This document shows positions 1,168 to 45,450 of a stretch of DNA of 64,000 nt, in pieces. Positions within the stretch are counted from its first letter, which is position 1. Each line of letters starts with the position of its first letter. The position numbers and the translations under genes were made by a program. The notes under the pieces were generated by a model. It had not been told where the DNA came from, did not search any database, and was given only the letters and a program-made list of their open reading frames with translations. The stretch is taken from the IMG/VR virus record IMGVR_UViG_3300025073_000397. One strand, given 5' to 3'. This DNA is from a virus.

Positions 1168-2474
1168 TCTTCTGCCCCATCCTCGGAAGGCTTCTCGTCT
1201 TTCTTTTTCCCTGTAAGCATGGCTTCAAGATCATTGTCGGGGGCTTCTTCTTGCTCTGCACCCTCTTCGTCCTCCTGCTCCCCCATGTACTTCTTGCTTA
1301 AGTCGCTAATGCTCTGTGTCAGCTTCTGTTTCAGGAGATCATAGCCACCAGCCTTCACCAGATGATCCTGAAATGCCTTCCGACCAACCCCCGTGACTTC
1401 TGTGCCATCATCAAGCGACGTGCTGAAAGTAGCCTTGACCTTTTTCACCAAACCGTGAGCCAGAGCCAGCTCAATCACAGAACGGATATCATCAATCCCC
1501 GTCCCCCACCTAAGGTAGAACTCCATCGAATTGCCCTGAGATGAAGAGACCTTACACTTATCCATGTGGATCTTGATCTTGCCCCCAATGACCATGTCCT
1601 CAACCTGTCTGGTCACCGGATTATGCACTTTCCCCCGTTCGCTCTGGACCCGAGTGAGCTTCATACGAGCACAGGAGTAGAATTTCCACACGTCACCACC
1701 CTGTGTAGTTTCCGAAGGCCCTGCACCGAAACCTTTCCTGGTGCCACCCCCACCCGCCTCGATCTTCTGTCGCAGCTGCGAGATGGCAATAATACTAGTC
1801 CCAGTGGTGGCCATGACTCGCTTGAACTTGGGCAGGAATTGTGACCACTTCGATGCAATCAGCCCCGGCCTTGTGTTCCCCAACTCTTCCAGGGACTGCT
1901 CGAAAATCGCCTTGGGGATGGCTGCCCCCACAGAGTCTATCACTATCAGGCTCACATTCTTGGCAGCACCAGCCATAAGAATTCTAAGCCCGTCCTCCAG
2001 GGTATTTGGCTGCATGAGTAGGAACTTGCTGGCGTCCCCCATGGGGACACCCAATGCCAACCCATAGTCAGGCACGATTTCATGTTCATAGTCAAGATAG
2101 ATAACCGTGCCCCCCTGGCGAATGATACTAGCGGATGCGGTCAAAGCTACGGTTGTCTTCCCTGAGGATTCCCTTCCGTACAGGTTGACGATCTTCCCTT
2201 TGGGAAGACCGGGGCAGGGGGACACCCCAAAAACATTAGGCTGGCCTCCTATGATGTAGTCGATGATGAACGACCCGGTAGGCCAGTGGGGGACAGGTTG
2301 TCTGAGTGTGCTGGTATCCAAAGAGACTACCCAGTCATCCGTGGAACCCTTTTTCTTGCCGTCCTCGCCCTTACCCATAGTCTTATCCACGATGGCCAAA
2401 ACCTCTGCCAAGGGTGACCCTGTTTCTACCTTCTTCTTACCGGCCATGACTTTGCCCCCTAAGCTTGTGACCAC
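1164..2474 (-). CDS. recA: RecA-family recombinase
   Basis: 436 aa. Walker A is LYGRESSGKTTVAL, Walker B is LIVIDSVGA, and there is a RecA L2-like region SQLRQKIEAGGGGTRKGFGAGPSETTQGGDVWKFYSCARMKL. The C-terminal tail is acidic (EQEDEEGAEQEE...). Confidence 0.88.
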   Translation of the reverse strand: MVTSLGGKVMAGKKKVETGSPLAEVLAIVDKTMGKGEDGKKKGSTDDWVVSLDTSTLRQPVPHWPTGSFIIDYIIGGQPNVFGVSPCPGLPKGKIVNLYGRESSGKTTVALTASASIIRQGGTVIYLDYEHEIVPDYGLALGVPMGDASKFLLMQPNTLEDGLRILMAGAAKNVSLIVIDSVGAAIPKAIFEQSLEELGNTRPGLIASKWSQFLPKFKRVMATTGTSIIAISQLRQKIEAGGGGTRKGFGAGPSETTQGGDVWKFYSCARMKLTRVQSERGKVHNPVTRQVEDMVIGGKIKIHMDKCKVSSSQGNSMEFYLRWGTGIDDIRSVIELALAHGLVKKVKATFSTSLDDGTEVTGVGRKAFQDHLVKAGGYDLLKQKLTQSISDLSKKYMGEQEDEEGAEQEEAPDNDLEAMLTGKKKDEKPSEDGAEE

Positions 2475-3103
2475 AGAAAGAATCGGTCATCCTCTCGATA
2501 GAGCATCCCCGACTTCCGAACCTCTCCAGCGTGCTTTCCCCGCTGATACGTATGCACCCTCAAGAATTGGTCTCTCTCTACTGGTGTCAATTCATCTATT
2601 GGGAGCACCCCATCCCAAAACTCCCAAAATCTTCCGCTCGCCACTGACACCCAATAAGCATCTGCTTCATTGTGATTGAAAGCAGTAGGGTGATCAGCCA
2701 GATCATGCCCCTTAGCTGCCTCCACCATATCGGGCTTCTTCATCTCCCACCAGTCGGGACGTTGAAGATGAAGTCTGGCATGTGCTTTCACCTGTTTAGG
2801 GGAGAAGAATATCGTGTCCATCTTCTCCCCTTTGAGTGCCTCGCACGAATAGAGAAACAACCCATACATGCCCTCAGAGTAGAGTTCCTTGAACACGGGG
2901 GACTCAATGCCCACCCTATCCGGCTTATGCTGCCGGATAATGCCACGAAGGGACTCTCTCATATGGACATAACGATCCACAAAAGTATCCTTTGCCACCG
3001 TCTGGAACCTTCCCCGGGCTTCGCATCGATTTGTAGACAGACGAGTATTGTGGACAGCCCACCCAAACTGGGTCAGGGATGGATCCAACCCTAATACGCG
3101 CAT
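2459..3103 (-). CDS. RuvC-like Holliday junction resolvase
   Basis: 214 aa. The N-terminus MRVLGLDPSLTQFGWAV is the RuvC motif I; NEADAYWV near the C-terminal third is the catalytic Asp/His region of RuvC/RNase-H-fold resolvases. It overlaps the recA start by 16 nt, so it is operon-packed. Confidence 0.75.
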   Translation of the reverse strand: MRVLGLDPSLTQFGWAVHNTRLSTNRCEARGRFQTVAKDTFVDRYVHMRESLRGIIRQHKPDRVGIESPVFKELYSEGMYGLFLYSCEALKGEKMDTIFFSPKQVKAHARLHLQRPDWWEMKKPDMVEAAKGHDLADHPTAFNHNEADAYWVSVASGRFWEFWDGVLPIDELTPVERDQFLRVHTYQRGKHAGEVRKSGMLYREDDRFFLWSQA

Positions 3104-3137
3104 CGAACGAAGCCCAGGGGGTTAGGGGTTGCCGACT

Positions 3138-3890
3138 CTAGAGATCCCCCAACAACTTATCGGCTTCCAAGTCAACAGCAGACGAGTCCACTGCTGATAC
3201 GGGGCCGACCGGGTTCCCCGAAAGCTTGCGCCGGATTTCATCTGCGGAAAGATCCTTGGCCATGTCTTCCCGGATGGACTCTGCCAACACCCGAATCTTG
3301 TCCTGGAGAGCCTTAAGGATTTCTGCGTGCTGCCCGGTTTCCGATGAGATCAGCTTCCGCAGGATGCTATCCTGACAGGTAGAGAATGCCATCTTCTGGA
3401 ACTGGTTGTCAGTACAAAGGACCCTTACGTCCTTCTCCCCCAGCGGAGTTTCACGATGCAGATTCAGCAGGAACTGATACTTTTCCTTACTCATGAAGAA
3501 GGGAAGCACCCTAATATATTCCTCAGTATCCTTCGCATCCAAGGCCTCCTTCAGGCGCATCTTGTCTACGTCTCCCTTGGAGTTCGTAGGCCACTGGATA
3601 ACTATCGTGGCTGCCATACGCTTAACGTCGGCATTGGCAATCTTCTTGATCTCGGCATTCTTCGCCAGAACATAGCCAACACCTTCAATATATACACGGT
3701 CACAACCCACAAACTTGGGCTTTGTGCTGAAATCCCACTCACCCGTCTCAAAACCGGGCCACCAAGCTAGACTCATGCGATCAGTCCGGCCCTCATTCCC
3801 CTTGTACTTCTCCTTCTTGGTGGAAAAGTCTGTGTCATTCTCACCAAAACTAAATTCGACATACCCACTCTCTTCTTTCTTGTCAGCCAT
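3138..3890 (-). CDS. hypothetical protein (recombination module)
   Basis: 250-aa ORF with no overlap, same strand and tight spacing, and no motif I recognise. Confidence 0.5.
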   Translation of the reverse strand: MADKKEESGYVEFSFGENDTDFSTKKEKYKGNEGRTDRMSLAWWPGFETGEWDFSTKPKFVGCDRVYIEGVGYVLAKNAEIKKIANADVKRMAATIVIQWPTNSKGDVDKMRLKEALDAKDTEEYIRVLPFFMSKEKYQFLLNLHRETPLGEKDVRVLCTDNQFQKMAFSTCQDSILRKLISSETGQHAEILKALQDKIRVLAESIREDMAKDLSADEIRRKLSGNPVGPVSAVDSSAVDLEADKLLGDL

Positions 3891-4008
3891 TGCAACATCT
3901 CCTTTGAAAGTTATTTGGCTCCGTCCTTGGATCTTCCGTCCTTTGACATTGCCACATCCACCCCACCAAAAGCAGGGTCACAAACACAATACTCTATTAG
4001 GACAAAAC

Positions 4009-4890
4009 CTAACCGAGAATTTTGTCCAAATCTTCATCCGAGATCAGAATTGGCTCCTTCACTACAAGGGGGTCCATACTGATCCTGTCTAATAGGGCGT
4101 CCATATCCTGTTCCGACCCAAACCCCACCAGAGCGGCAGGTACGCTTAAACACTCATTGGTGGGGCCAGTGACCCCCGAATCCCCCAAAGAACTACCACC
4201 ATCTAGGGCCTTCGGATCTATCCCAAGCATTCCTTTTGATGCATGCCCATTACTATCTGCCGGAACATCTCCCACTCTCTCGGGAAGGGGCACTTCTTGG
4301 GCCACTTCTTCAATGAGCTTGTCTATTGAATCATACTCAACAGTACTCACGGAAGATGGGGAGATAGCGTTCTTGGAGTCAGCCTTAGACCCCCATCGGG
4401 CACCCAGCCCTAATTCTTGCTGGCAGATAGTCAGCTGATCCCGAATACGACCCTGAATGTCCTTCAGATCGGTTCTCTTTGCTCTGACTACCGTCAACAA
4501 ACTGTCCAGATCGTTGATGGCTACCTCCAATTGGAACATCTCGTCAACTACGGGGCGAAGCTTCGATTTGGCGATTGCCTCCCTATCCGCCACATTCCGC
4601 CCTGCCTTTGTGTCAGGATCATGGACGAACAGATGATCCTTTTGAAGGGAGAACTTTGCCCTGACCGCAGTCAAATCCCGCTGTATCAGATGCCGTAGTC
4701 TGGACGACTCCAGAAAGATCTGCTCCGTGCGAGAGAGAAACTTCCTTACTTGCGCTATTTTACTATTCAGTCTCTTAGGGCCAAATGCAAGCGGGTCATC
4801 GTCCAACTCCACCTGCATACCGATCAACTCATTGTACGCTGCTTTCACCCATTCAGGATCAACTCTGTTGGGTGGTGTCCCCTGTGTCAT
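4009..4890 (-). CDS. hypothetical protein
   Basis: 293-aa ORF, co-oriented, with no motif I recognise. Confidence 0.5.
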   Translation of the reverse strand: MTQGTPPNRVDPEWVKAAYNELIGMQVELDDDPLAFGPKRLNSKIAQVRKFLSRTEQIFLESSRLRHLIQRDLTAVRAKFSLQKDHLFVHDPDTKAGRNVADREAIAKSKLRPVVDEMFQLEVAINDLDSLLTVVRAKRTDLKDIQGRIRDQLTICQQELGLGARWGSKADSKNAISPSSVSTVEYDSIDKLIEEVAQEVPLPERVGDVPADSNGHASKGMLGIDPKALDGGSSLGDSGVTGPTNECLSVPAALVGFGSEQDMDALLDRISMDPLVVKEPILISDEDLDKILG

Positions 4891-5269
4891 TGTCAGTATC
4901 CCCAGTCAACTCGCTCAACAGAATGGAGTAATTAGTCTTTATCCCGTTGATGGTCATGTCCGCTTGCTCAGGGCTAATCACCCCATTAGCTTTAGCATTC
5001 AGATGTGCCGCTACATCCACATGCAACCCCAACAGAACCGTTGCTAGACGAGCTTCTTTGATGGTCATAGCCTGCACAGGAATAGCCGCCTTTTCCAACA
5101 GATCATGCTCATCCTCCACACTCTCGAACTCTGTAGTCCATGCTACAAATGTGTCATCCCCTCGGGTTCGACCCTTCACGCATCGAGATGCCACGATCTT
5201 CGTGACCCGCATTTTCCCTTTGATCGCCTTGAGCATATCTCTCGTTGACTGCTTCATCCTGCGCACCAC
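4859..5269 (-). CDS. hypothetical small protein (doubtful)
   Basis: 136-aa ORF that overlaps the 3' end of the helicase gene by 116 nt and the next gene by 32 nt. Its start is uncertain. Confidence 0.25.
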   Translation of the reverse strand: MVRRMKQSTRDMLKAIKGKMRVTKIVASRCVKGRTRGDDTFVAWTTEFESVEDEHDLLEKAAIPVQAMTIKEARLATVLLGLHVDVAAHLNAKANGVISPEQADMTINGIKTNYSILLSELTGDTDNDTGDTTQQS

Positions 5270-7622
5270 CTACACCCAATACCCCATTCACAAGACGTTC
5301 TCTCAAAAGAGAATTCCGTCTATCCTCTTGATCGTTGGAAACTGCCAGTGCAACCGCTTTCAGACTCCCCACCAGGATCACCTTCTTCTTTGCCCTTGTG
5401 ATCCCCGTGTAGAACAAGTTCCGCTGGAGCTGATGCCGGAAAGATGGCACCACGGGCATAATCACATAGTCATGCTCTTGCCCCTGGACCTTATGAACTG
5501 TCGTTGCAAAGGCCAATCGCACATGAGTCGCCGCAACATGAAAGGGCATCCTTATGACCAGAAGATTAACCCCCTCTATCTCCATCTCCAACATCTTGGA
5601 CTTGAAGTCAATCCCTCGAATCTTGCCAATATCTCCATTGTAGACACCCAGCCTGTAGTCATTCTTGAAGATCATTACCCGATCCGCGACCCTAACCACA
5701 GCATTCCCTATTCTCACCTCCATCTGCCCATGCTGCTTCGGATTCAGCACCTCTCTGAGGACACGATTAAGATTGGTCACACCAACCACACCAGCATGCC
5801 TGGGAGAGAGCACTTGGAATCGCAACTCTCTCTCCGCACATCTACGAGCCAGCTCCACGATAACCTTAGCCGCCTTTTCATCCGTTGATGTCTCCAACAG
5901 GACGAAATCCGATTCATCCAGGGTAGCCCCACACTTGGGGACCCTTCCGTGATAAGTGTCATGGGCGGCAAAGATGATACCCGACGTGTCTTTCTGGCGA
6001 TAGACTTCCGTCAAAGCCACAGACGGAAACTTACCAGATGCCAACATATCCCGAAGAACATTCCCCGGGCCCACCGATGGAAGCTGTGCTGCGTCCCCTA
6101 CGAAAATGATCTTACTAGTGGGGGCCGTACAGTGCAGTATCCGATAGAGCAGCGAGAGATCCAACATACTACTCTCGTCTGCCACTACGAAAGCAGCAGG
6201 ATAGGGATGCTCTGGTGAATAACCCCACTCACTCTTATCCGCCCCAACTGAAATGTTAGAATCCCCAAGAATACCCTCATAAGAATACTCACGAGTTTCT
6301 TCGGACTCCCCTTGCGCCTCAAATGCCCGATGGATCGTAAACGCCTCTGACCCGGTCAGAGCAGACAGTCTCTTGGCCGCAATCCCTGTAGGGGCAATCA
6401 GTAGGTAGGGCATCCCGGTCAACTGAAGTATCCTGACCAGCACCTGCATGGAAAATGACTTGCCCGTCCCGGGTAGTCCAGTCAGAATACTAACTGGATG
6501 GATAAGAGCGTTCGTGATTCCGTCTACTTGCTGAGGAGATAAAGAAACTTTTCGAGCCAGTTCCCAACCATGGACAGCAGTTGTAGCAATCTGCTTAAGA
6601 GACTCAACCTTTGAGTCGGGCGGGACTACCCCACAGTCTACCAATCGCTGTGTGAAATCTTTAACCCCATCTTCAGACCATTGAGCCGTCTGCAGCCGTT
6701 CCAGGAGCATTCTAGCCGCTCCGGACTCCATCTCATGGAGCCACACCTCATAAACTGCCTTGGTCCCCGTGAGCGTCGTCCTGTCCACGTAAACTCGCCC
6801 AACTTTGTGGAGAGCCACCAGTGCTTCCACGAAGGTTCGGTCATCCACACTGGGGACCAACTGTCGGACTTGGGCAAGTAGCATTCCGGTTGTCCCAAAA
6901 CTATGCCCCCCCAACTTCTGCATCTTGGTCGCATGAAGAACGGCCCCTGAGACCCTTTGCAGAGATACCCCACTCAGCCCCAGGTTGGTTGCTATGCTAT
7001 CCGCCTGCTGGAAAGTGAACCCATCCAATTCTGTCAGACGCCAAGGATTCCGTGCAAGGATGCCATCGGCATCCCCCCCAAATTCCGTCCAGATTGAATT
7101 GATCTTGTCTTGGGGAATACCTACCTGAGCCAAAAAGGACAATGTCCTGAGATGTGCTACCGTGGCTACCCAACGAGTTGAGATGTGCTCTGCCAATAGG
7201 GGGGTCAAGTCGGGGGCTTTACTCAGCTCGATGGGGTCTTCAAGCACCCCGGGGAATTTGTCTCCGAAGAACGCCTTGACCCGCAAAAGGAGCAGCTCCC
7301 CCACCCCATTGGAAGAAAGCATTTTGATAGCGGTTTCAGCATCCCACACCGCCTCGAAGATTGGAGCTCTCTTAATCTCCAATTGTCGCCCAAACTTTGG
7401 GTGTGTGACCCACTCCGCATCAAACTTCAGCCACATTCCGGGACGAACATCCAATCCGGGAATGTTCCCCCTTACAGAAGTCTGGACGTCATCAAAAACC
7501 GCCCACTGGGAAGCTACCTCTTGCTTGGGCTGTTCTTTTTCGTCCAATTCCATCTTAAGGACATAGAACGCCTGGGGCACATTCTCATACAAGATGGAGT
7601 CGACACGTCCGGAGAAGATCAT
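5154..7622 (-). CDS. RecD2-like SF1 DNA helicase
   Basis: 822 aa. Walker A is LTGLPGTGKSF, Walker B is VVADESSMLD, motif III is FVGDAAQLPSVGPG, and motif V/VI is TTVHKVQGQEHDYVIM ... TRAKKKVILVG. The N-terminal ~350 aa is unassigned. Confidence 0.85.
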   Translation of the reverse strand: MIFSGRVDSILYENVPQAFYVLKMELDEKEQPKQEVASQWAVFDDVQTSVRGNIPGLDVRPGMWLKFDAEWVTHPKFGRQLEIKRAPIFEAVWDAETAIKMLSSNGVGELLLLRVKAFFGDKFPGVLEDPIELSKAPDLTPLLAEHISTRWVATVAHLRTLSFLAQVGIPQDKINSIWTEFGGDADGILARNPWRLTELDGFTFQQADSIATNLGLSGVSLQRVSGAVLHATKMQKLGGHSFGTTGMLLAQVRQLVPSVDDRTFVEALVALHKVGRVYVDRTTLTGTKAVYEVWLHEMESGAARMLLERLQTAQWSEDGVKDFTQRLVDCGVVPPDSKVESLKQIATTAVHGWELARKVSLSPQQVDGITNALIHPVSILTGLPGTGKSFSMQVLVRILQLTGMPYLLIAPTGIAAKRLSALTGSEAFTIHRAFEAQGESEETREYSYEGILGDSNISVGADKSEWGYSPEHPYPAAFVVADESSMLDLSLLYRILHCTAPTSKIIFVGDAAQLPSVGPGNVLRDMLASGKFPSVALTEVYRQKDTSGIIFAAHDTYHGRVPKCGATLDESDFVLLETSTDEKAAKVIVELARRCAERELRFQVLSPRHAGVVGVTNLNRVLREVLNPKQHGQMEVRIGNAVVRVADRVMIFKNDYRLGVYNGDIGKIRGIDFKSKMLEMEIEGVNLLVIRMPFHVAATHVRLAFATTVHKVQGQEHDYVIMPVVPSFRHQLQRNLFYTGITRAKKKVILVGSLKAVALAVSNDQEDRRNSLLRERLVNGVLGVGGAQDEAVNERYAQGDQRENAGHEDRGISMREGSNPRG

Positions 7623-7629
7623 GGGTGTC

Positions 7630-8157
7630 TCAGTTGGCTTTCAGTCGATTAGCAATGTCTTTGAGAGCGTTTAGGCTCATGCCCTCCACTAGCTGGGGCT
7701 GTCCCTTCAGGGTATCCTGCATCTTGAGCATATCAACAACAGTGGCCATAGCTAATCTACCTGTATGCCCCACCAACTTCTCGAACGGCAATCGGACAAC
7801 TTGCCCTGCATCAGACCGAACCTGAAGGCACCCACTCTCCTCTAGGGTACCTTTTGCCACTACGTTCAGAAGGAAGGCCAGGTCAATGTGATGACCGGCC
7901 GGACAACTCTTTCTGCCCATAGCCTGCCAACGACAACATCCACCACCCCACTTGGTGGGATCAATTGACTCGGGAAGATGATGCATTGAAACTTGAACAT
8001 TCTGCCCTATGAAGGGTTTAACCACTTCCCAGACATTCTGGACTCCCGTCCGATCTTCGACCAATATCGACTCCAAAACGAGTGCGCCGTCTCCTTCCCA
8101 CAACGGCGAGTTGAAAAACCCCTCTAAAAGAATTGCATTGAAACCAGAAGACCACAT
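7630..8157 (-). CDS. hypothetical protein
   Basis: 175-aa ORF between the helicase and the RNR gene, Cys/His-rich (GGGCCRW, CPAGHH). Confidence 0.45.
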   Translation of the reverse strand: MWSSGFNAILLEGFFNSPLWEGDGALVLESILVEDRTGVQNVWEVVKPFIGQNVQVSMHHLPESIDPTKWGGGCCRWQAMGRKSCPAGHHIDLAFLLNVVAKGTLEESGCLQVRSDAGQVVRLPFEKLVGHTGRLAMATVVDMLKMQDTLKGQPQLVEGMSLNALKDIANRLKAN

Positions 8158-8179
8158 TGAATCACCTCCAGAAACACCA

Positions 8180-11100
8180 TTACACTATCTTGGGTCCATC
8201 GGGCGAGACCGAGCAAGACAAGGTGCAGGTATCATTGGAACAGAACTTCTCGGTCTCCTCATGGACAGCCGAACAGAGATTCAACGGTTTGATCCGCTTG
8301 ACCAACTTCTCGTACTCTTCCTTAGTGATCTCAATGTAAGGTGCCTGCTCATACCCATGGTCTTTTAAGGGGACAAACGATACCCCCTTGAGTCGAGTCT
8401 CAAAAGCTTCCAGACACGTCTTGATATCCTTGACTTCGTGGGGCTGAAAGGAAACAGAGATGCTGACAGCGTTGTCACTCCACTCTCTCTGCAAATCAGC
8501 TGCATTCATCATCTGTTCCCAAATCGTCACGTCCTTCTTCGACTTGGAAAAGTTCTTCTCATGAATGGGGAATGAGACCACAGAAGTCTCCGGGGCGCAT
8601 TTATCAGCTTCAACGAGATATCCTGCCTTGCGGCAAGCCTTGACCAGCGGGGATATGTCAGCCACCCGAACGTTCCTGATGTAGTATTCAGCATGAGGAT
8701 AGTGAATTCCGGGGGTGGCACCAACAACCAAAGAAATTGACCCAGATGGCTTAACGCTTGTGGTCTTAATCGACCGTGGGATGCAAAGCCATTCTGAGTA
8801 AATCTTGTCCAGTTCTGCTACGTACCTGTACCCTTCATCGCACCATCGCAGGTATTCCCGCCTGCCCAACTTCGCCATGGCCTGGACAATACCGGACTGT
8901 GAGCACCCTATCCGCCGATTCCGCATTGCAACCGCATTAGCTCGAAGATCATGTGTGGGAACAAGAGTCACAGTCTTAGCATACAGATAGGCGAACTTCA
9001 GAGTACGTTTAAAATCCTCCAGGGTGTCATGATTAGCAGGGAAGGACTCGACTAGGCAGCAGCACTCATATGCAGTTAAGGTTTGCTCCATGCATTGTGG
9101 TGTGAAGATACCCCCACATTCCATGGCAACTGGGTCGAATGCCGTTACAATCCCAACAGTATGGTTCACATCCACACTCAAATTATAGGCGGGTTCCTCA
9201 TCATCCAAGAAACGCAACGCCTTAACTGTATGATTGTACTCCCCCACAAGAGCCTTTAAGTGCCGAAATCCCCGCACAGCAAAGGGGTTCTGTGTGTGCC
9301 CCTCTCCTTGGAATCTGAAAGCAACCCCTCTCCTTCTGCACTCGTTCTCCCACTCCCGCTTAAGTGGCTCCCTTCCCAATGATACCTGCAATTCCTTGTA
9401 GGTGGAGACCTGATTGTGTCGCACTTGCTGCTGCCGTGCCGCATAACTCCGTCGCAACCCCACTGTTCTCTTTTGGATGTGCTTAGCATTCTTGTTCATA
9501 CAGGAACGGGAGCAAAATTCCGTGCTCCTTCTCCCCCATGGGACTAGACGTTTTTGGCCACATATCTTGCATTCACAAACAACTTGCAGACACCCATCCA
9601 CCCAAGTTGTCTCTAACTCCGTAGTAGCCTCTATCTCCTGGTAGTATTTAGCCAACTCTCGTCTTCGCCACTCGCTCATAGCGCGAGCCGCCCTTACTCG
9701 TTGTGCCTCTGTATGGAATCCCAATTTCTTACGATACTCCGGGTCTTTACACCTCTCCTTAGACTTGGCCCCTATTTTTGCTCTGGTCTCATCAGACTGT
9801 CTTCGGCCCCACATGGGATTCCGTACCCCCACGTTATCCCGTTGCCCATGGAATCTCTCATGATCCTCAAAATACATGATCTCCAAATTGGACGGGGCAT
9901 TGTTCAAGGGATTGTAGTCCCGGTGATGGACCACGATTCCCCCCTTTACCCATCCGGCTACTTTACCTGCATCGTACATCCGTGCCCATTTGTCGGGTTC
10001 CATGAATTTAGCGACCAACCGATGCTCATAAACTTTGTCCGCAGTACAATCCAATGTGTTGCAGTTCACTCTCAGATACCTGTCCTTTCCCTGGACGATA
10101 CATTCTGGACGTTTGGTGAACCTGGGCAGGCTATCCCCAACTTTCATATCTTTGGCCTCACACTTAGTCCCATCCAACCTGACCATCTTGTGGTCGGGTG
10201 TCACCTTTAAAACAGCACCATCATCGAGTACAACCTCCATGAATTTAGCTCGCATCCTCGTCATACGAGGATGCCTGCCAATCTGCACCTCAACCCGCCC
10301 TTCCGCAGTGAGTGAGTAGACAAGGATATCATCCCCCTCATCTGCCAATTGCCGAATAGGCACTGCACCACGCCCATCTGCCACCGCTATAAGGGTACTT
10401 CCAGCGAAACAAGGGTTAGCACCCATCACTCTAGCATCCACATAATTAGGCTTATCCCGCATCCGAGCGTAGGCCCGAGCATTCTCCAACCAGAAGAATC
10501 CTGGCTCCCCATTCGTAGCCGCCAACTCCGCAGTTCTGCTATAATCCATTCCCACCTTAGCCAGGATGGAATTGTTCGAACACCACCTGTGACTATTCAA
10601 TTTGGCCTTATCTTGTTTGAGGCTCATGAACTCCTCATCATCGGGTTCCCCAAACATAGCCTCCGCTGTCCTACGCAAGCCCCCGGACACAACACACTTC
10701 CCGATCAAATTGTAGATGTCCACAATCGTGGCAGTCGTAATCTTGTACGGCTCCCCATCCGCTGGGGTCAATAGCCCCGTTAAATCTCCAATCAAGTTGA
10801 TCAGGGGGTCAGGCCCAGCGGACACACCCCCAAACGTCTTGAGAGGCGAGCCAGCTGGCCGTATCTGCGAGTAGTCTATGCTGGTGGGGTAAAAGCCCTT
10901 TCCCACAAAGGAATTCAAGACTACCCGTAGTAATTCAACCCACCCTTCCCGACTATCATCCACCACATAAGGCTTGTCGGTATACCGGGGGACCTGAATC
11001 TTGACTTTCCCCGCCCCCCTTACATCCCCCGATATCCCAACACCCAGCATCGAGAAATCCATTAGGAAACAGAAAGGCCCAGCAAAGTCTACATCTATGT

Positions 11101-11578
11101 CTTTCGTACTGGAAAGCCCACAGTTCATTAAGCAGGCGCTACCCTTCTTCTCCACAATGTCTGTCCCCATCCCCCAGAGACCCCTCCCTGGAGGCAGGAA
11201 CTTGAACTGCCACATACGAGTGTACATCTCTTGCGCTGAATTCTGGGCTTTGGCTTCGTCCCAAGGGAGCTTCAGATCCCAACAGTGCCTCTTTTGGATG
11301 TTGTAGACGCCCTCCACTACACGCCTGCAAGTCTCCCGGAACTCCTCTGTAGTACCATCTGGTTGAGTTCTGGCGTAGGTCCTCTTAAAAATGAAATACC
11401 CAAGACCCCCATACCCCCACTCTGGCTGTTTGCCTGCGAACTGGTCAAGGAACGACTGAGATATCTTGAAGACCCGGACCTTTCTGTCACTCGGAGAATA
11501 GAACTCTGACATGATTGGTTGTGCCCTTTCAGTGTAGGAGATTAGCTCAATGGATTCTGCATCGTCCCAATTGACCAC
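8180..11578 (-). CDS. nrdJ: class II (adenosylcobalamin-type) ribonucleotide reductase NrdJ, interrupted by an intein
   Basis: 1132 aa. Class II RNR blocks FLPPGRGLWGMGT, SACLMNCGL, GEPGFFWLENARAY, ...VMGANP|C. After the insert the extein resumes with CMEQTLTAYECCCLVESF, matching NPCxE...YExCNLGSI. The spliced size would be about 693 aa. Confidence 0.85.
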   Translation of the reverse strand: MVNWDDAESIELISYTERAQPIMSEFYSPSDRKVRVFKISQSFLDQFAGKQPEWGYGGLGYFIFKRTYARTQPDGTTEEFRETCRRVVEGVYNIQKRHCWDLKLPWDEAKAQNSAQEMYTRMWQFKFLPPGRGLWGMGTDIVEKKGSACLMNCGLSSTKDIDVDFAGPFCFLMDFSMLGVGISGDVRGAGKVKIQVPRYTDKPYVVDDSREGWVELLRVVLNSFVGKGFYPTSIDYSQIRPAGSPLKTFGGVSAGPDPLINLIGDLTGLLTPADGEPYKITTATIVDIYNLIGKCVVSGGLRRTAEAMFGEPDDEEFMSLKQDKAKLNSHRWCSNNSILAKVGMDYSRTAELAATNGEPGFFWLENARAYARMRDKPNYVDARVMGANPCFAGSTLIAVADGRGAVPIRQLADEGDDILVYSLTAEGRVEVQIGRHPRMTRMRAKFMEVVLDDGAVLKVTPDHKMVRLDGTKCEAKDMKVGDSLPRFTKRPECIVQGKDRYLRVNCNTLDCTADKVYEHRLVAKFMEPDKWARMYDAGKVAGWVKGGIVVHHRDYNPLNNAPSNLEIMYFEDHERFHGQRDNVGVRNPMWGRRQSDETRAKIGAKSKERCKDPEYRKKLGFHTEAQRVRAARAMSEWRRRELAKYYQEIEATTELETTWVDGCLQVVCECKICGQKRLVPWGRRSTEFCSRSCMNKNAKHIQKRTVGLRRSYAARQQQVRHNQVSTYKELQVSLGREPLKREWENECRRRGVAFRFQGEGHTQNPFAVRGFRHLKALVGEYNHTVKALRFLDDEEPAYNLSVDVNHTVGIVTAFDPVAMECGGIFTPQCMEQTLTAYECCCLVESFPANHDTLEDFKRTLKFAYLYAKTVTLVPTHDLRANAVAMRNRRIGCSQSGIVQAMAKLGRREYLRWCDEGYRYVAELDKIYSEWLCIPRSIKTTSVKPSGSISLVVGATPGIHYPHAEYYIRNVRVADISPLVKACRKAGYLVEADKCAPETSVVSFPIHEKNFSKSKKDVTIWEQMMNAADLQREWSDNAVSISVSFQPHEVKDIKTCLEAFETRLKGVSFVPLKDHGYEQAPYIEITKEEYEKLVKRIKPLNLCSAVHEETEKFCSNDTCTLSCSVSPDGPKIV
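9095..10411 (-). mobile_element. intein (~439 aa) with HNH homing-endonuclease domain, inserted at the RNR NP|C active site
   Basis: Block A is CFAGSTLIAVADG (compare Sce VMA CFAKGTNVLMADG). The HNH motif is VVHHRDYNPLNNAPSNLEIMYFEDHERFHG. Block F is AYNLSVDVNHTVGIV. Block G is GGIFTPQ followed by Cys+1, a C-terminal Gln instead of Asn, as in a minority of inteins. Boundaries were inferred by eye. Confidence 0.6.
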
Positions 11579-11900
11579 GCCAAATCAAACTGGCCGGAGT
11601 CAATGGCCTCATTATCTTCTTAGACAAACGCCCTTTTAAAGCAGCCACCTTCTCCCCTGCGGTAGGAAACCATGCCCAATCCGAGACTCGAATTCGAATA
11701 GTGCCGCCTCTAGTCGTGAGGTCATCCACTACAGCCAAGACATCTATGGCTTGGTGGCTATTCAACTCATGAGGTAAATCTGAGTCATAGTTGTGGTGGT
11801 TCCTAATCCAGGCACCCACCGCTGCCTTTGTCTTCTTCCACTTTTTTCTGTCGAAGATTAAAGTTTCTTCATGACTTCCAACTACCTTCTGTATCGGCAT
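11547..11900 (-). CDS. hypothetical protein
   Basis: 117-aa ORF that overlaps the nrdJ start by 32 nt, with ATGA-type packing against holA. Confidence 0.4.
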   Translation of the reverse strand: MPIQKVVGSHEETLIFDRKKWKKTKAAVGAWIRNHHNYDSDLPHELNSHQAIDVLAVVDDLTTRGGTIRIRVSDWAWFPTAGEKVAALKGRLSKKIMRPLTPASLIWRGQLGRCRIH

Positions 11901-12901
11901 CAGAATGCCCCCACTATCCCACAGGTAAGTGCAGCCCAGGGATCAATCCCCCCAGATAGCACCGCTTCTTCCGCTTTTGCCATTCCCGATAGCAACCTGT
12001 TCAGCCCCTTCTCCCCCCATGCTCTAGCAAAGGGAAGTATCGTGTTACTGTACCGCCAAGGATGCACTCCAACTACAGGTGCAGCGTCCCTCGCTTGTAT
12101 ACCCCTCTTCTCCAGGTTGGCCGCTTGCAGGCACAAGTAAAGATGGGATGCCAATATCCGTATCACCATCATGGCCTTATCTGCCCCACCTGTAGCCCTA
12201 ATCCTATCCAACACCTTGATCACCAATACCTTATTCCGCATCCCCAAGGCATCTGTCAGCTTAAAAACAGAAGTCTCCATGAGGACAGCCTTGGTCCGCG
12301 CTATGTCCTCACCAAGTATCTCTGTCTTTCCGTGTGCCTGGACAAACAAGGCTGCCTTGAACATCTCAAATGAAAGAACCCCAAAGTCTGACCCCAAGAG
12401 CGAAACCATGGCTCCAGCTGTCTTTTCGTTCAAGGTAAGACCGTACCTCGTGGCCTCCTTCACGCAGAACTGTGTCGCAACGGCATCCATCTTAAATGGG
12501 GGGGGCTCATCTACCTGAATGACTCGTTTCTTTTCTATCTCTGCTGCTAGCTTCGCAAACCCAGACTTGGCCGGAGCCGTCCCAGGACAACAAAAGACTA
12601 GAGCCAGCCCTGAATCGGGGCTCTTCAGATAATCCCGAACCAACTCGTCATCCAGGGACCCCTTGGGGACGTTCACCACAATCAACCGATTGGCTTCCCC
12701 CATCATTGACATGATCCCAGATAAGGTGGTAGGCAACTCGGACGGATCATCTTCGTACTCTACTTGCCAGTCGCCCCCTTCGAACAAAGCAACATAGTCT
12801 TGCACCACTCGACGGCGTAAGAAGTCGTGACTACCTGAAACCATCAGGATTGGAAAAGGTTTCTTAGCCATTAGCCCCCCAGGAGAGCGTTGATAACCCA
12901 C
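11900..12901 (-). CDS. DNA polymerase III delta (HolA)-like clamp-loader subunit
   Basis: 333 aa. General HolA-like architecture with a helical C-terminal half (AMMVIRILASHLYLCLQAANLEKRG). It is adjacent to and overlapping an SRC-motif AAA+ gene. The call rests on memory of the family only. Confidence 0.5.
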   Translation of the reverse strand: MGYQRSPGGLMAKKPFPILMVSGSHDFLRRRVVQDYVALFEGGDWQVEYEDDPSELPTTLSGIMSMMGEANRLIVVNVPKGSLDDELVRDYLKSPDSGLALVFCCPGTAPAKSGFAKLAAEIEKKRVIQVDEPPPFKMDAVATQFCVKEATRYGLTLNEKTAGAMVSLLGSDFGVLSFEMFKAALFVQAHGKTEILGEDIARTKAVLMETSVFKLTDALGMRNKVLVIKVLDRIRATGGADKAMMVIRILASHLYLCLQAANLEKRGIQARDAAPVVGVHPWRYSNTILPFARAWGEKGLNRLLSGMAKAEEAVLSGGIDPWAALTCGIVGAF

Positions 12902-13497
12902 AATTCAGTTGGGGGACTGTACTTAGCTGCTTTCCGTACTCTAGACCAAAGGACAGAGTATCGATCCCTCTCCTGTGATGCTGCCTCTACAATCAATTCC
13001 AAAAGATCAGCCAAATGTTCCTTATGCTCATGAATCAGAACGATCATCTCAGCCGTCCGGCCCTCTATAAGGTTGTCTAATACCATCCTCCCATCCCGAA
13101 CTACATCTGGGTCTCTTTCCACGTCCCCATTGATCCAATGGACAAGACATCGTGACCGGATAGTATCCATGACCGATCCTACATCCTTTGCCCATAAGAG
13201 TAGCATAACTGAATCTGTGGTCCCATCCTCCACGGACTTCAACAGCACGTCTTGGGATTTCTGTGCAGCCTTATCTAGAGGCCCAACCAGTATGCAACCA
13301 ACTCCTGCCCCTAAAGGCGGGTTTCGGAGGAGACCAACAACTTCTCTTGCATCATCCACTTTGAGACCATCTCTACCAAATTCCCCAATGATCCTACCGA
13401 TCCCTTCGGCAATAGCCTTGACCCCCGATTCTGCTGCAGGCCCGTGGAATAGCAAACTTGAAGGCACGAAAGACACCCCCCTGGCAATAACAACCAC
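12871..13497 (-). CDS. clamp-loader AAA+ subunit (delta-prime/HolB-like, short)
   Basis: 208 aa. LLFHGPAAESG is a degenerate P-loop in the delta-prime position; TIRSRC is the clamp-loader SRC motif. Confidence 0.55.
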   Translation of the reverse strand: MVVIARGVSFVPSSLLFHGPAAESGVKAIAEGIGRIIGEFGRDGLKVDDAREVVGLLRNPPLGAGVGCILVGPLDKAAQKSQDVLLKSVEDGTTDSVMLLLWAKDVGSVMDTIRSRCLVHWINGDVERDPDVVRDGRMVLDNLIEGRTAEMIVLIHEHKEHLADLLELIVEAASQERDRYSVLWSRVRKAAKYSPPTELWVINALLGG

Positions 13498-13688
13498 TAC
13501 TCTATTCCTGGAGTACTAGAAACCAATATGGAAGGGGCGATTGCAACTGGTGCACAAATAACGCACAAACCTTCCTTTCTGATTCTCCACCCGAAACACC
13601 AGCTTGGCTTGTTGGCCTTTGCAATTTGGAGTAGCCCTACAAGATATCCACACAATCTGCTCTTCACCGGGTTTCGGTTGGATCCCAC
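13497..13688 (-). CDS. small Cys-rich hypothetical protein
   Basis: 63-aa ORF that exactly fills the gap between two co-oriented genes, with starts and stops abutting. Confidence 0.3.
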   Translation of the reverse strand: MGSNRNPVKSRLCGYLVGLLQIAKANKPSWCFGWRIRKEGLCVICAPVAIAPSILVSSTPGIE

Positions 13689-14267
13689 TCATGATGGTAT
13701 ATATCCTTGTTCCTGGAAACTCAATAGTAACTTCCCGTGGTAATACACCACAAGCTCATCATACCGCCCAGCGGACAATAAATCCGCTAGGTAGGGAAGG
13801 CTCAACTGGTTCGTCTCATCTTGAAGGACAGGAACCACAGCTCTTTCCCACCGATCCCAAGAGACATAGAAAGGAAAGTAGCGATCATCCGCTTCTTGCA
13901 GAGCGGGTGTAGCAGTTCTCGCTACTTGAACTCGATCAGAGGGGGCTGCCACATTGGTAGTGGGGAAATTACAATGAGCCCTACCAGCAAGTAGGTAGAG
14001 AACCCCCACTGCTAATCTCTCGCCTAAAGCAGCAGCCGCTGAGAATTCATTGGGGTGAAGGGTAGATGGCCTAGTCACAGAAGTCCCATAACGAGTCCTA
14101 AAGACATCCGATGACCCTGGATTATTGTTCGCCCCAGTAACCGAATCCATCACTGAGACATCAGAAACCATCCCAGTACAAGCAATTCCTCTTGTCCTAG
14201 GGTTGATGATCTGTCCAGTCCTAGGGTCTGTAGGGACCATAGTGAAAGATTTCTTAGCCATCTCCAC
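13689..14267 (-). CDS. hypothetical protein
   Basis: 192-aa ORF, co-oriented, downstream of a 755-bp non-coding region. Confidence 0.5.
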   Translation of the reverse strand: MEMAKKSFTMVPTDPRTGQIINPRTRGIACTGMVSDVSVMDSVTGANNNPGSSDVFRTRYGTSVTRPSTLHPNEFSAAAALGERLAVGVLYLLAGRAHCNFPTTNVAAPSDRVQVARTATPALQEADDRYFPFYVSWDRWERAVVPVLQDETNQLSLPYLADLLSAGRYDELVVYYHGKLLLSFQEQGYIPS

Positions 14268-15022
14268 CCCCCTCCCACTTCAGGTCAGTCTATTGACTGG
14301 AAAATGGCTCTTTTGAGCAAACCTTTCCCAATCCCACCGAACGTGGGCCGTACTGGGTTCTCAGGATGGGTACAAATAAGAGTCGTTTCTTATCAATCAG
14401 CCTGTGTCAGGGACCATTCCGGTCAGGACGTCGGCAATCAAATTGAAATTTCAAGTAGGAGTAGGTTCGTGTGTATCATAATAATGAGTATGATAAGTAG
14501 GATAGTGATTTAGACGATCTAACTACCGTTAGATCTCTTACTACTCTACATTGAGTAGTCCCTTTGATCCAAGCGATAGGTCGTTCAGGGAAATCCCTTT
14601 ATGGAAATCCCGTGGGCTATCCAGAGCCAATCTGCAAGACTGGAGAATCGCTGATTCTCACCTCCTGCTATTTGGATTGGAACTCCCACACTCGCCATGC
14701 CTTCTCTACAAGAAGGTTCAGGCAGCATCGTCGCGTAGCCTTTTTACTGCAACTTACATCCTGAGAAGGCGCTACACCCAACTCCCCAACCCTTTCGGAT
14801 TTCCCGTCTCGTAACCCCTGATGTGTAAAAGGTCTACCACCAGAGTATCCATCCGGCGAATCCCCAAGAGACTTCCAAAGAGACCGTCGTGGTGTCACCG
14901 GAACTCAAGATGCCCTATTTGTCAAAGAGCGTGCTGATGAATTCATAAGGTTCATCCCTGTTCACACAGGGGATACTGGGACTCATACTCCAATGGGAAA
15001 GGCTGTCAAGAACTTTTGTTGA

Positions 15023-16231
15023 CTATCCACTGAAAAAACTAGAAGGTGCATAATGGGTAGAAGGAACAGGGAATCCATTGAAAGTAGACGCGTAACCAAG
15101 AGTGTAAGCGCCTGCGTTGATGATGTAGACTCGGTCTCCAATCTCCACAGAACTCATCTCCTTATCTCGGAACATGACGTCCACACTATCACAAGATGGG
15201 CCTGCTATTGTGTATATTTCTTGTTTGGCCGTATCTGGAGAGATGGTATCCTTTCTTGTGAGGATCTTGTAATTGAACCCACAAGAGGTTTCCATGAGTC
15301 CGTTAAAGACTCCAACATCCAGATACACCCAAGTCTTACCCTTGTAGATTCGTTTTGAGACTACTTCGGCAACCATGACCCCTGCATCCCCAACCAATCC
15401 TCTACCAGGCTCTATGATCAATTTGGGGCTATGGGGGAATTCCGTGGCTATGAAGTCTCGGATTGTCCTTCCGATCACATCCATAGATGGAATAGTCTTA
15501 AGGTGCTGAATTGGGAACCCACCCCCCATATTGATCCAACCTAAATGGATACCTGCTTCTGAACAGTCTTGATAGATGTCTCTAACCATGGACAAGGCAT
15601 GCGTCCAATTTTCAGTAGACAAAGATTGTGACCCCGGGTGGAAAGCTATTCCGAGAGGTTGCAACCCTGCTTGTTGGATCTGTTTGAGTAGTGAGCAAGC
15701 TTCATTGGGGGCACACCCAAACTTTTCAGACAGTGGCCAATCCGATGCCTTTCCACCCACGTCTACTCGCACGAAGATCTTAGCGTTCGGGGCGACGGCC
15801 TTGAATTTAGCTATCTCAGATGGGGAGTCCATTGAAAAGACTCGCACTCCTCTATCGTACATCTTCTGTAGGTGGGTTAGCTTCCTGAAAGGTGCACTAT
15901 GTATGATGGTTTCAGGCGGGGCACCCAAACCCAATAGCTTCTCTACTTCATACCAAGATGCCGTCTCGAACTTCCCTATTCCCTGGCTGAGAAGCCGGTG
16001 AATGACATGAGGGTCAGAGTTAGCTTTGATGGCATAGTGGATATCGGCATCCGGGAGAGCATGGTGGAGCTTCCACAGATTAGCCTCTACCAGAGATAGA
16101 TCCAGGTAGAGGAAGGGGGTCTCGAAGGCGTCAGTCTGGTGGATGATTTCGGGAGTGAGTTCCAAGGGATTGCCCTCGCTGGTGTCGTGTAGCCACACGA
16201 ATTGGGGAAGGTGCCATGCCATCGTCGGCAT
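15023..16231 (-). CDS. PLP-dependent decarboxylase, fold type III (ornithine/diaminopimelate/arginine decarboxylase family)
   Basis: 402 aa. The PLP-lysine motif is HYAIKAN, the Gly-rich loop is GGGFP, then EPGR, and the substrate-Cys motif is IAGPSCDSVD. Confidence 0.85.
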   Translation of the reverse strand: MPTMAWHLPQFVWLHDTSEGNPLELTPEIIHQTDAFETPFLYLDLSLVEANLWKLHHALPDADIHYAIKANSDPHVIHRLLSQGIGKFETASWYEVEKLLGLGAPPETIIHSAPFRKLTHLQKMYDRGVRVFSMDSPSEIAKFKAVAPNAKIFVRVDVGGKASDWPLSEKFGCAPNEACSLLKQIQQAGLQPLGIAFHPGSQSLSTENWTHALSMVRDIYQDCSEAGIHLGWINMGGGFPIQHLKTIPSMDVIGRTIRDFIATEFPHSPKLIIEPGRGLVGDAGVMVAEVVSKRIYKGKTWVYLDVGVFNGLMETSCGFNYKILTRKDTISPDTAKQEIYTIAGPSCDSVDVMFRDKEMSSVEIGDRVYIINAGAYTLGYASTFNGFPVPSTHYAPSSFFSG

Positions 16232-18442: not shown

Positions 18443-18750
18443 ACCCCCGTATTTTCCAGATGCACTACTTCACAACGATCTATTCAATACACGAATTTCA
18501 TTCTACTTTCAAACCCATGCCCAACGAACAATTTTGGGCGCTGGGTCAAACACCCCCGATTGATAGGAAAACTAGCGTAGCAGAATCCCGTATTTTCAAG
18601 GGGTTGCAGGAGGCACAAAAAAAGACTTTGACAGCCTTGAAAGATCGGGTATCTTCACTAACTGGTAAGGCAAATGACCTGCTCGGAATGAGCCATTGTC
18701 CATGCCTACCATAACTTAACCGTGGTGCAATAGCACCCAAGGAATCCGAC

Positions 18751-33416: not shown

Positions 33417-33959
33417 TTACAAGTTGGGGAATGACTCTTGGATTCGCTGTAGTAGAGTCTGTGCCTTTCTTTCCCATTTGGAAGCTGCTTCTGTCCCTTG
33501 GAGTGGGCCAATGGCTGCCCAAGTCAAAGGAGCGGACTCTTGGACCAAGGCCACAAGCTCCTGGATCAGGAATTCTTTCGTAATAGTCCCGATCGATTCC
33601 GTTCGATCCAGAGCATCCCCACGGATTCTCTTTGCACAGTAGTGGGCGTAGTTAGCTAACCACCCGTTTGAATAGATGCAGGATGTTGTATGCCCTTCCT
33701 TTGCCCTAACCATCTGAACGTCCTGTAATGGGATATAGAAACGACCAAGAATGTCAAAGAACCGTTCTTCCTGATTCTTCCCTGGCACATACGGAATATC
33801 CTTTATCAAAATGTCCTCCATAGCCCCAAACCGCAGACAATCCCTCAAAAGCGTATAGAGGACTGATGTCAGCGGGTCGTTGGTGTAGGTGACTGTGCCT
33901 GATGCTCTGGTGATATGATCCTTGTCAAGCATCGGGGAACTCCGTTGGTTTTGAGCCAT
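33417..33959 (-). CDS. hypothetical protein
   Basis: 180-aa ORF. Confidence 0.5.
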   Translation of the reverse strand: MAQNQRSSPMLDKDHITRASGTVTYTNDPLTSVLYTLLRDCLRFGAMEDILIKDIPYVPGKNQEERFFDILGRFYIPLQDVQMVRAKEGHTTSCIYSNGWLANYAHYCAKRIRGDALDRTESIGTITKEFLIQELVALVQESAPLTWAAIGPLQGTEAASKWERKAQTLLQRIQESFPNL

Positions 33960-45339: not shown

Positions 45340-45355
45340 GCTAACTCCTTTCAAC

Positions 45356-45390
45356 ACTTGGTACTACCCACCCAACACAAACCCTAACAA
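45356..45390 (-). promoter_or_regulatory. promoter motif instance D, upstream of helicase + HA-repeat operon
   Basis: TACTACCC at 45362-45369, a 14-nt spacer, then CTAACA at 45384-45389. Confidence 0.6.
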
Positions 45391-45415
45391 GTTTTCTGCA
45401 TCCCCCACGAAAAAA

Positions 45416-45450
45416 CTGTTTGACAACCCTGAATCGGAGTAATATCTTAG
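45416..45450 (+). promoter_or_regulatory. promoter motif instance G (variant), divergent from D, upstream of the 45549 gene
   Basis: TGTTTG at 45417-45422, a 14-nt spacer, then GAGTAATA at 45437-45444. Confidence 0.45.

Follow-up and report, generated by a model that had tools for sequence, protein, structure and literature searches.

The window, by which we mean the whole 64-kb stretch of DNA analysed here, carries at the head of a minus-strand replisome operon a long non-coding island. Comparative analysis shows that this island is homologous, at three colinear anchors, to the corresponding islands of two related phage lineages, which align with each other over ~700 nt and evolve under purifying selection. 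The island probably works as a functional element at the level of RNA; more specifically, we see an even chance that it is a conserved, folded, cis-acting untranslated leader of ~700 nt that gates transcription into the replisome operon. A sequence-only reading of the same DNA had suggested either a replication origin or a structured RNA, and of these the RNA option gained support from the comparative evidence while the origin option became weaker: the window has no iterons, the AT-richness of the patch is not conserved, and the GC skew keeps its sign across the island.

The non-coding island and its genomic setting

According to the gene map, no ORF-free stretch of the window is longer than the island (14262–15022, minus strand), the runner-up gap measuring 360 nt, and the ORF listing contains no ORF of more than 87 aa on either strand of 14268–15022; the earlier description of a lone long ORF-free stretch thus holds. 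The same reading had placed its bounds at the start of a 192-aa gene and at the decarboxylase. The decarboxylase side was kept, but the probable start codon of the downstream gene is an ATG at 14261–14259 (minus strand), preceded by GGGAGGGGGGTGGAG and backed by the N-termini of homologues, which shortens the gene to 190 aa and therefore sets the island bounds at 14262–15022. This 190-aa gene is the first of the replisome operon on the minus strand, where it is accompanied by a 63-aa gene and genes for the clamp loader, a class II RNR and a helicase. Pfam searches identified the upstream neighbour as a PLP Orn/DAP/Arg decarboxylase and the downstream neighbours as clamp-loader subunits, an intein-bearing class II RNR and a RecD-like helicase, in agreement with the helicase/RNR/clamp-loader setting proposed before. 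The features to which we refer below are, in 5′ to 3′ order of the minus strand:

14262–15022, minus strand: the whole non-coding island, proposed untranslated leader or non-coding RNA of the replisome operon (ORF-free; colinear with L001/L009; fold z-score)
14982–15009, minus strand: candidate sigma-70-type promoter with −35 TTGACA (15009–15004), a 16-nt spacer and −10 TATGAG (14987–14982), read from the sequence
14956–14971, minus strand: predicted hairpin CCCUGU-GUGA-ACAGGG with a GNRA tetraloop (pair probability 0.90)
14917–14933, minus strand: boxA-like element CAC-GCUCUUUGACA-AAU (10/11 to GYTCTTTAANA; top tile match)
14768–14899, minus strand: predicted closed multi-helix domain with a GAAA tetraloop hairpin at 14789–14800 (helices at pair probability 0.75–0.99)
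14757–14766, minus strand: 5′ strand of the predicted long-range helix UCUCAGGAUG, pairing with 14359–14368 (probability 0.99)
14678–14738, minus strand: conserved internal-loop module GACGAUGCUGCCUGAACC-hairpin-GGCAUGGCGAGUGUGGGAGUUC (covariance model R2; covarying pairs)
14634–14668, minus strand: predicted long hairpin GCAGGA..GAGAAUC-AGC-GAUUCUC..UCUUGC (pair probability 0.99–1.00)
14540–14559, minus strand: hairpin HP1, ACUACUC-AAUGUA-GAGUAGU (read directly; 3′ arm and flank align with L001/L009)
14516–14535, minus strand: hairpin HP2, GAUCUAAC-GGUA-GUUAGAUC, with conserved flanks UAAGA...GUCUAAAU (pair probability 1.00)
14436–14522, minus strand: G-depleted, weakly structured tract, Rho-loading-like or alternatively a DNA unwinding element (from composition)
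14359–14368, minus strand: 3′ strand of the long-range helix, within a CCUGAGAAC motif (fold prediction)
14259–14276, minus strand: Shine-Dalgarno sequence GGGAGGGG with the probable ATG (14261–14259), read from the sequence

The island is outside every described RNA family. With each family's gathering threshold as the minimum covariance-model score for membership, Rfam 15 gave no match in the whole window, and at E-values up to 10 the window's island and those of L001 and L010 returned chance matches only (at most 22 bits); the families not matched include riboswitches, group I/II introns, GOLLD, ROOL, OLE, HEARO, 6S, tmRNA and RNase P. An Rfam/Infernal scan, which had been put forward as a check, hence brought up no family that explains the structure, and a tRNA—judged unlikely before—was absent from the island in a tRNA/tmRNA scan, as was a tmRNA. 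No match came from 50,697 phage records searched by BLAST with the island and the DNA around it, from scans of IMG/VR for close relatives with both flanking proteins, or from an exact-protein lookup of the 192-aa ORF, and we found nothing relevant in the literature on structured RNAs or origins of huge phages.

Conservation and folding among related huge phages

Homologues of the ~190-aa first downstream gene form five clusters only among 5.8 billion proteins. From the contigs of these homologues, together with loci reached via the clamp loader, we assembled a set of relatives, all of them phage contigs from metagenomes, the longest of 618 kb. Nine related huge-phage lineages harbor an ORF-free region of 330–950 nt at the equivalent place, directly upstream of the 190-aa gene, a ~60-aa gene, the clamp loader and RNR:

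L001: ORF-free region of 822 nt
L009: ORF-free region of 950 nt
L010: ORF-free region of 730 nt
L025: ORF-free region of 663 nt
L018: ORF-free region of 594 nt
L029: ORF-free region of 476 nt
L019: ORF-free region of 427 nt
L008: ORF-free region of 398 nt
L022: ORF-free region of 326 nt

The region is small or absent in three relatives. Since the gene upstream of the island varies by lineage, the island appears to travel with the replisome block. A further locus, the 1.8-kb JGI contig L005, matches the window letter for letter; its sample is also that of a 536-kb relative.

At the level of plain alignment (blastn and tblastx), the window's island matched none of the relatives' islands; only L001 with L009 and L022 with L025 aligned. 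L010, L018, L025 and other relatives share with the window a common architecture, their sequence likeness being undetectable. The L001 and L009 islands align over ~700 nt at 73–77% identity, as compared with 66–75% for the flanking genes, and their substitutions show no 3-nt periodicity and are accompanied by several 1-nt indels. Conservation persists 3′ of the hairpin, at 73%. Their 5′ domain, 180 nt long, adopts a closed multi-helix fold of 51 pairs, nine of which vary between the two lineages; all nine still pair, five of them via double changes, as opposed to zero or one in controls in which the fold was slid along the alignment. The consensus fold of the two islands reaches a z-score of −4.2 against column shuffles. 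Covariation is drawn here from two sequences, and from three for the internal-loop module and HP2. These comparisons show that the L001/L009 island is non-coding and under purifying selection, as judged from its pattern of substitution. L022 and L025, the other alignable pair, have a conserved 150-nt block in common, with hairpins kept partly via G·U pairs; the L022 hairpin is preserved through one such pair.

Tying the window to this alignment required more sensitive searches. Neither nhmmer with the whole L001/L009 alignment nor a covariance model of the L001/L009 5′ domain (R3) found anything in the window, the latter in terms of significant matches. The internal-loop module was recovered by model R2, which covers 61–76 nt and was built from L001 and L009 only, with the window left out: run against the whole window with filters off, it gave a sole match at 14678–14738 (minus strand; 25.3 bits, E ~1.5e-5; next best 1.1), an E-value to be discounted about ten-fold because the module region was picked after viewing the three-way alignment. 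Another module model (R1) found no further relative, and a pattern scan of IMG/VR returned only L009's own contig. The same scan of GTDB genomes gave 11 matches, with an estimated ~6 by chance, and as these reach just 10–17 bits with the module model, they are not members.

Independent of the choice of module, we cut the L001/L009 alignment into 21 overlapping tiles of 80 columns and searched each against the whole window. For four of the 21, the best match fell within the island, in colinear order and each time on the sense strand, compared with 0–2 tiles (mean 0.32) for 25 dinucleotide-shuffled islands. Three colinear anchors link the window with L001/L009—the boxA-like CGCUCUUUGACAA, the internal-loop module, and HP2 with its flanks—and in direct alignments they appear as TCTyTGACAAwT, the module itself, and UAAGAGAUCU-AC...G--AGAUCG---AAU for HP2 and flanks. 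On this sequence evidence, the window's island is shown to be homologous to the L001/L009 islands at the three anchors.

Within the module, covarying pairs occur alongside a conserved G·U, which forms on the gene strand only. Its internal loop is receptor-like, reading CCUGAAC...GCAUGG in the window, CCUAAC...GUACGG in L001 and CCUAAC...GUAAGG in L009. The consensus of the 11-nt GAAA tetraloop receptor is CCUAAG...UAUGG, to which the loop is similar, but not identical, in the three lineages; GAAA and GUGA tetraloops do occur in the predicted folds.

The two perfect hairpins had been noticed earlier as GATCTAAC-tacc-GTTAGATC (14516–14535) and ACTACTC-tacatt-GAGTAGT (14540–14559), and both can be read directly at these positions. 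The promoter −10 box that the arms of the second were said to resemble, GAGTAGTA, was not supported: that word has 42 matches against 30.7 expected, in contexts that do not align. HP2 is conserved in L001/L009, where its stem pairs 4 and 6 covary, and it is among the top tile matches. In L010, L025, L022 and L008, the G-poor tract comes after a comparable 8-bp hairpin, which has a (G)GUA loop and a stem of entirely different sequence. Perfect hairpins with a stem of at least 8 bp and a loop of 3–5 nt number ~9 in 64 kb, or ~1 per 7 kb, so that ~0.1 would be expected in 755 nt; two adjacent hairpins in this space are unusual, not extraordinary. CTACT words were considered as a motif and dropped, being merely about two-fold enriched in intergenic DNA, and a clustering of GATC was examined and likewise dropped.

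The whole island folds with a z-score of about −3.6 to −4.4. As the value is similar on both strands, folding energy assigns no strand. Some 450 nt rich in stable helices follow the candidate promoter, and the long hairpin at 14634–14668 adjoins the most structured 150-nt segment of the window (14500–14649, z −4.6). The long-range helix joining 14757–14766 to 14359–14368 corresponds to inverted repeat I1; like the closed domain at 14768–14899, it is predicted from a single sequence. In the window as in L025 and L008, the motif CCTGAGAAC occurs 85–130 nt ahead of the gene start; it is not enriched across the window, and the idea that it marks promoters in general was dropped.

A candidate checkpoint ahead of the replication genes

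The candidate sigma-70-type promoter sits directly after the decarboxylase stop and points into the island, with a predicted transcription start near 14975 (minus strand). L001 (TTGACA-18-TATATT) and L009 (TTGACA-18-TATAGT) carry at the same edge promoter-like sites that each match 11/12, with a diverged spacer, and L010 has TTGACT-18-CATTAT at its 5′ edge. The 11-mer TTGACAGCCTT followed by N10-GTAT recurs in the window only at intergenic position 18628 (plus strand). The window's −10 hexamer, TATGAG, is weak, without the final T, and the site did not pass the promoter scan. That scan found no credible or comparable promoter in the window downstream of the hairpins and the G-poor tract.

Close to the start of the predicted transcript comes the boxA-like anchor. 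The boxA consensus GYTCTTTAANA is gamma-proteobacterial (PMC5725501), and the E. coli rrn boxA with its flanks reads CAC-UGCUCUUUA-ACAAUUUA, that of lambda CGCUCUUA (PMC2724277). The window's GCTCTTTGACA (14920–14930) agrees with this consensus at 10/11 positions—a gamma-proteobacterial yardstick (PMC5725501) and perhaps not that of the host—and has CAC before and ACAA after it, as in rrn (PMC2724277). It is the sole site in the window within one mismatch of GCTCTTTAACAA. L001 and L009 match the gamma-proteobacterial GYTCTTTAANA at 9/11; position 8 is G (A8>G) in the element of all three lineages, with L001 and L009 deviating more widely. TCTyTGACAAwT is conserved in L001 and L009 and, among all loci, confined to these islands. 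From the element to the start codon extend ~650 nt without an ORF. The predicted fold leaves the window's element partly paired. We found no lambda-type boxB (5-bp stem, GNRNA loop) after 14917–14933, HP2 with its GGUA loop lying ~400 nt away, and identified no N-like gene. Long untranslated RNAs are prime substrates of Rho, and boxA-mediated Nus antitermination shields the transcripts of rRNA genes and CRISPR arrays, with a consensus that drifts between phyla (PMC7665894). The boxA reading thus offers a coherent model, which we treat as a lead suggested by sequence.

Downstream of the hairpins, the gene strand of 14436–14522 contains ~5% G and 25–28% C and is 65–70% AT, as compared with ~50%; seen on the plus strand, it includes the most C-depleted 60-mer of the window (2 C in 60). 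Its mean pairing in the predicted RNA, 0.42, is lower than that of any other part (0.63 for the leader as a whole), and the tract has the composition expected of a rut site (~70–80 nt or more, C>G, poorly structured). Equivalent tracts, 70–130 nt long and with at most 10% G on the gene strand, occupy the corresponding place in nine lineages, directly after the hairpin in the shared layout. They are AT-rich (65–70%) in the window and L010 and C-rich at ~50% AT in L022, L025 and L029, so the conserved property is the depletion of G on one strand, not AT-richness. Two other sense-strand G-poor tracts of the window, at 18450–18535 and 45331–45421, lie upstream of promoters and not inside leaders.

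Arranged in order, these parts suggest a transcription-elongation checkpoint. A host-type sigma-70 promoter after the decarboxylase stop would start the leader transcript, which would then comprise the boxA-like element (14917–14933), the folded domains with the module (14678–14738), the hairpins (14516–14559) and an 85-nt G-poor tract, followed by another ~170 folded nt and then the ribosome-binding site. An unstructured tract with C>G in a long untranslated RNA would be a natural loading site for Rho, and the boxA-like element, possibly with the conserved hairpin acting via some factor, would render RNA polymerase resistant to termination; we propose that entry into the replication genes is gated by this contest between Rho loading and antitermination. 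We only infer that the island is transcribed, from which strand, and that Rho and Nus factors play a part, and we consider the specific Rho/boxA mechanism less likely than not, and less likely than the leader as such. Several observations speak against the leader: the weak −10 of the window, a folding energy that assigns no strand, covariation drawn from two or three sequences, an L001/L009 5′ domain that is undetectable in the window, relatives that share the architecture but no detectable sequence, the deviations and partial pairing of the boxA-like element, the G-poor tracts found elsewhere in the window upstream of promoters, and HP2, which as a perfect DNA palindrome could be an operator.

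Known systems resemble the proposed leader in part. As in rrn leaders, lambda nut and the leaders of boxA-bearing CRISPR arrays, a boxA-like site occurs early in a long untranslated RNA on which Rho could otherwise act; unlike them, the window's leader would be far longer and more structured, and position 8 is G. In lambda, the nutR-tR1 checkpoint immediately precedes O and P, the replication genes. The putative checkpoint in the window has the same placement relative to replication genes, but differs from lambda nut in having neither a boxB nor an identified N-like protein. With Rho-dependent attenuators (rut) the island shares an 85–110-nt, weakly paired tract with C>G in an untranslated leader, placed after structured RNA; in contrast to these, the window's tract is recognised by composition only and is richer in A/U than in C.

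In size (0.5–0.9 kb), number of helices, GNRA loops and receptor-like internal loops, the islands recall GOLLD, ROOL, OLE and HEARO, and GOLLD and ROOL, too, occur in phage genomes. They differ from all four in giving no covariance-model match at E-values up to 10, in being fixed as the leader of one operon, and in being known from just a few contigs, all metagenomic. To our knowledge, bacteria and phages have few large structured non-coding RNAs, and every new class of them that we are aware of has revealed new biology; we also know of nothing on the timing of replication genes in huge phages of several hundred kb. Tentatively, the islands might represent an undescribed class of large (0.5–0.9 kb) RNA of a huge-phage clade, serving either as a Nus/Rho timing gate or as primer or activator of a transcription-dependent origin. 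If the leader model is true, a conserved ~700-nt leader would turn the host's antitermination logic, boxA versus Rho, to use where the replisome operon begins, and offer a concrete and testable handle on early-to-middle gene control in uncultivated huge phages.

Origin, stand-alone RNA and other readings

A replication origin, with duplex opening at the hairpins and the strand-asymmetric, AT-rich patch, strikes us as unlikely, if the best placed of the alternatives. The island is the largest non-coding region and heads the replisome genes, and the patch is 65–70% AT in the window and in L010. In relatives the patch has repeats, a perfect 24-nt tandem repeat in L029 and an 18-nt repeated word in L010. 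For the window, the sequence-only reading had described an AT-rich repeat patch, of which the AT-richness stands and the iterated words proved not to be significant: TRF and a repeat finder detected no tandem or direct repeats in the patch and no iterons or tandem repeats in the island, the criterion being at least three direct repeats. By eye, only one 9-mer of the window patch comes within two mismatches of a DnaA box. Nor is AT-richness itself conserved, L022, L025 and L029 being at ~50% AT, whereas the depletion of G on the gene strand is.

At the island there is a sharp GC-skew step of ~0.15, also in GC3: at 1–13688, all 12 genes range from −0.16 to −0.26 (GC3 skew −0.07 to −0.35), and to the right of the island the skew has a magnitude of ~0.05, its sign mostly following gene orientation, so that genes oriented like those 12 show about −0.05. 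The same step, with gene orientation unchanged, is present in L001, L009, L010, L008, L022 and L025. However, the skew keeps its sign, plus-strand genes to the right show ~+0.05 rather than the ~+0.2 predicted for a bidirectional origin, and the cumulative minimum of the window falls near 53–55 kb; the step therefore fits a distinct, perhaps heavily transcribed, operon better. Selection on ~700 nt, with compensatory changes and G·U pairs, also exceeds what an origin needs.

At such an origin, transcription from the edge promoter might activate or prime initiation, by analogy with the primary origin of T7, oriF/oriG of T4, and ColE1. Common to the island and these origins, including that of ColE1 RNA II, are a sigma-70-type promoter ~0.5 kb upstream of an AT-rich patch, folded RNA in between, and adjacent replication functions. 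Unlike ColE1 RNA II, the window's sense RNA is G-depleted at the patch, with no G-rich, hybrid-forming segment, a composition unfavourable for a persistent R-loop, and it differs from all three systems in that the skew does not change sign and the island is known from sequence only.

Instead of leading into the operon, the RNA might stand alone, as a trans-acting structured non-coding RNA of ~450–500 nt that runs from the promoter to HP1/HP2 as its 3′ end or terminator. Its role may then be unrelated to the operon, for instance in binding a host or phage protein or in counter-defence, and the operon's own promoter may lie in the G-poor patch. The conserved order of promoter, ~450-nt folded part and two stable hairpins would suit such an RNA, as would the features resembling tertiary motifs (GNRA loops, receptor-like internal loop) and, in L001, a promoter-like site (9/12) that overlaps the hairpin. 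Yet no U run follows the hairpins and no terminator was called there, nor does the window show a credible promoter past them, and conservation between L001 and L009 goes on 3′ of the hairpin. We consider this reading improbable, more so than an origin.

Slightly less probable again is a regulatory hub acting purely at the DNA level, made up of promoters, HP2 as operator for a dimeric repressor, and protein-binding tracts, the RNA fold being functionless. In its favour, the half-sites of HP2, which form a perfect 8+8 palindrome, vary in concert among relatives; two further promoters in the window likewise have G-poor tracts upstream of them, and the fold is as good on one strand as on the other. 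This reading leaves unexplained 700 nt of conservation at a level like that of coding sequence, compensatory changes across many separate helices, and helices kept by G·U, which on the other strand, and in DNA, would be A·C.

The reading of the island as a decayed, recoded or intron-containing protein gene is close to refuted: each frame has 9–18 stops of more than one type, reassigning any one stop codon leaves all frames closed in the window and five relatives (six lineages), which rules out stop-codon recoding, tblastx between islands shows no similarity, L001/L009 substitutions lack codon periodicity, and intron families are unmatched in Rfam for the window's island and those of L001 and L010—so that the recoded gene or intron signature allowed for by the sequence-only reading did not turn up in the island, even with inteins and homing endonucleases active in its gene block.

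GC-skew step at the island

GC skew takes a sharp step exactly at the island, the ORF-free region (14262–15022, minus strand) read as a candidate structured untranslated leader of the replisome genes; the step includes third codon positions (1–13688 versus 15023–36696), and gene orientation is unchanged across it. The coding-strand excess of G over C is about 0.2 in the replisome block versus about 0.05 elsewhere in the window, and a skew step at the island's counterpart is conserved in six related phage contigs or loci (L001, L008, L009, L010, L022, and L025). One of these, the 536-kb phage contig L010 (IMGVR_UViG_3300009031_000221), carries a distant version of the island locus and comes from the same metagenome sample as the contig L005 (JGI 3300009031, 1777 nt), which holds an identical copy of the island.

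Candidate promoters and G-poor tracts

Elements shared between the island and other intergenic sites of the window are as follows.
14999–15009, minus strand: 11-mer TTGACAGCCTT, intergenic
18628–18638, plus strand: identical copy of TTGACAGCCTT, intergenic
18450–18535, plus strand: sense-strand G-poor 60-mers
45331–45421, plus strand: sense-strand G-poor 60-mers
18628 and 45420: TTGACA of the sigma-70-like promoters near these two G-poor stretches

Both copies of the 11-mer are directed toward their downstream genes and followed at equal distance by GTAT; judged by sequence, the two sites probably represent one promoter family. Beyond the island's own tract (14436–14522, minus strand), the two G-poor stretches are the only ones of their kind in the window, and since both are intergenic and lie just upstream of sigma-70-like promoters, G-poor tracts may characterize the heads of this phage's operons more generally.

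A complement to the Shine-Dalgarno region GUGGGAGGGG (14269–14278, minus strand) lies 733 nt upstream of it, within the spacer of the candidate promoter at the island's 5′ edge: CCUUUCCCAU (14993–15002, minus strand), with a predicted pair probability of 0.91. Such pairing could occlude the ribosome-binding site solely in transcripts that read through from the operon upstream.

Recurrence of island motifs

The related locus L029, whose clamp loader has just 33% identity with that of the window, shares a 12-mer with the island hairpin HP2 and has a repetitive G-poor tract.
14513–14524, minus strand: GGTAGTTAGATC, loop and 3′ arm of HP2
L029 2846–2857: identical 12-mer
L029 2874–2949: perfect 24-nt tandem duplication, TACTTCTCGAACTCCTACTCCTAC twice, within the G-poor tract

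The L029 12-mer lies at the 5′ edge of this tract and lacks the hairpin context; about eight ACTCCT units also fall within the tract (2874–2949). A second exact match in the window to the boxA-like pattern GYTCTTTRANA, GTTCTTTGACA (33752–33762, minus strand), falls within a gene, in the sense orientation; chance alone would give about 0.6 matches of this kind.

Neighbouring genes

8180–11578, minus strand: class II (B12-dependent) ribonucleotide reductase with an intein bearing an HNH endonuclease
L006 2760–8054 and L008 4043–10483: counterparts in relatives, with at least two inteins with LAGLIDADG domains
15023–16231, minus strand: phage-encoded PLP-dependent ornithine/DAP/arginine decarboxylase, directly upstream of the island

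The L006 helicase harbors one further intein. The decarboxylase is not found at the corresponding position in L001 or L009, and in L010 this position is occupied by an unrelated 402-aa ORF.
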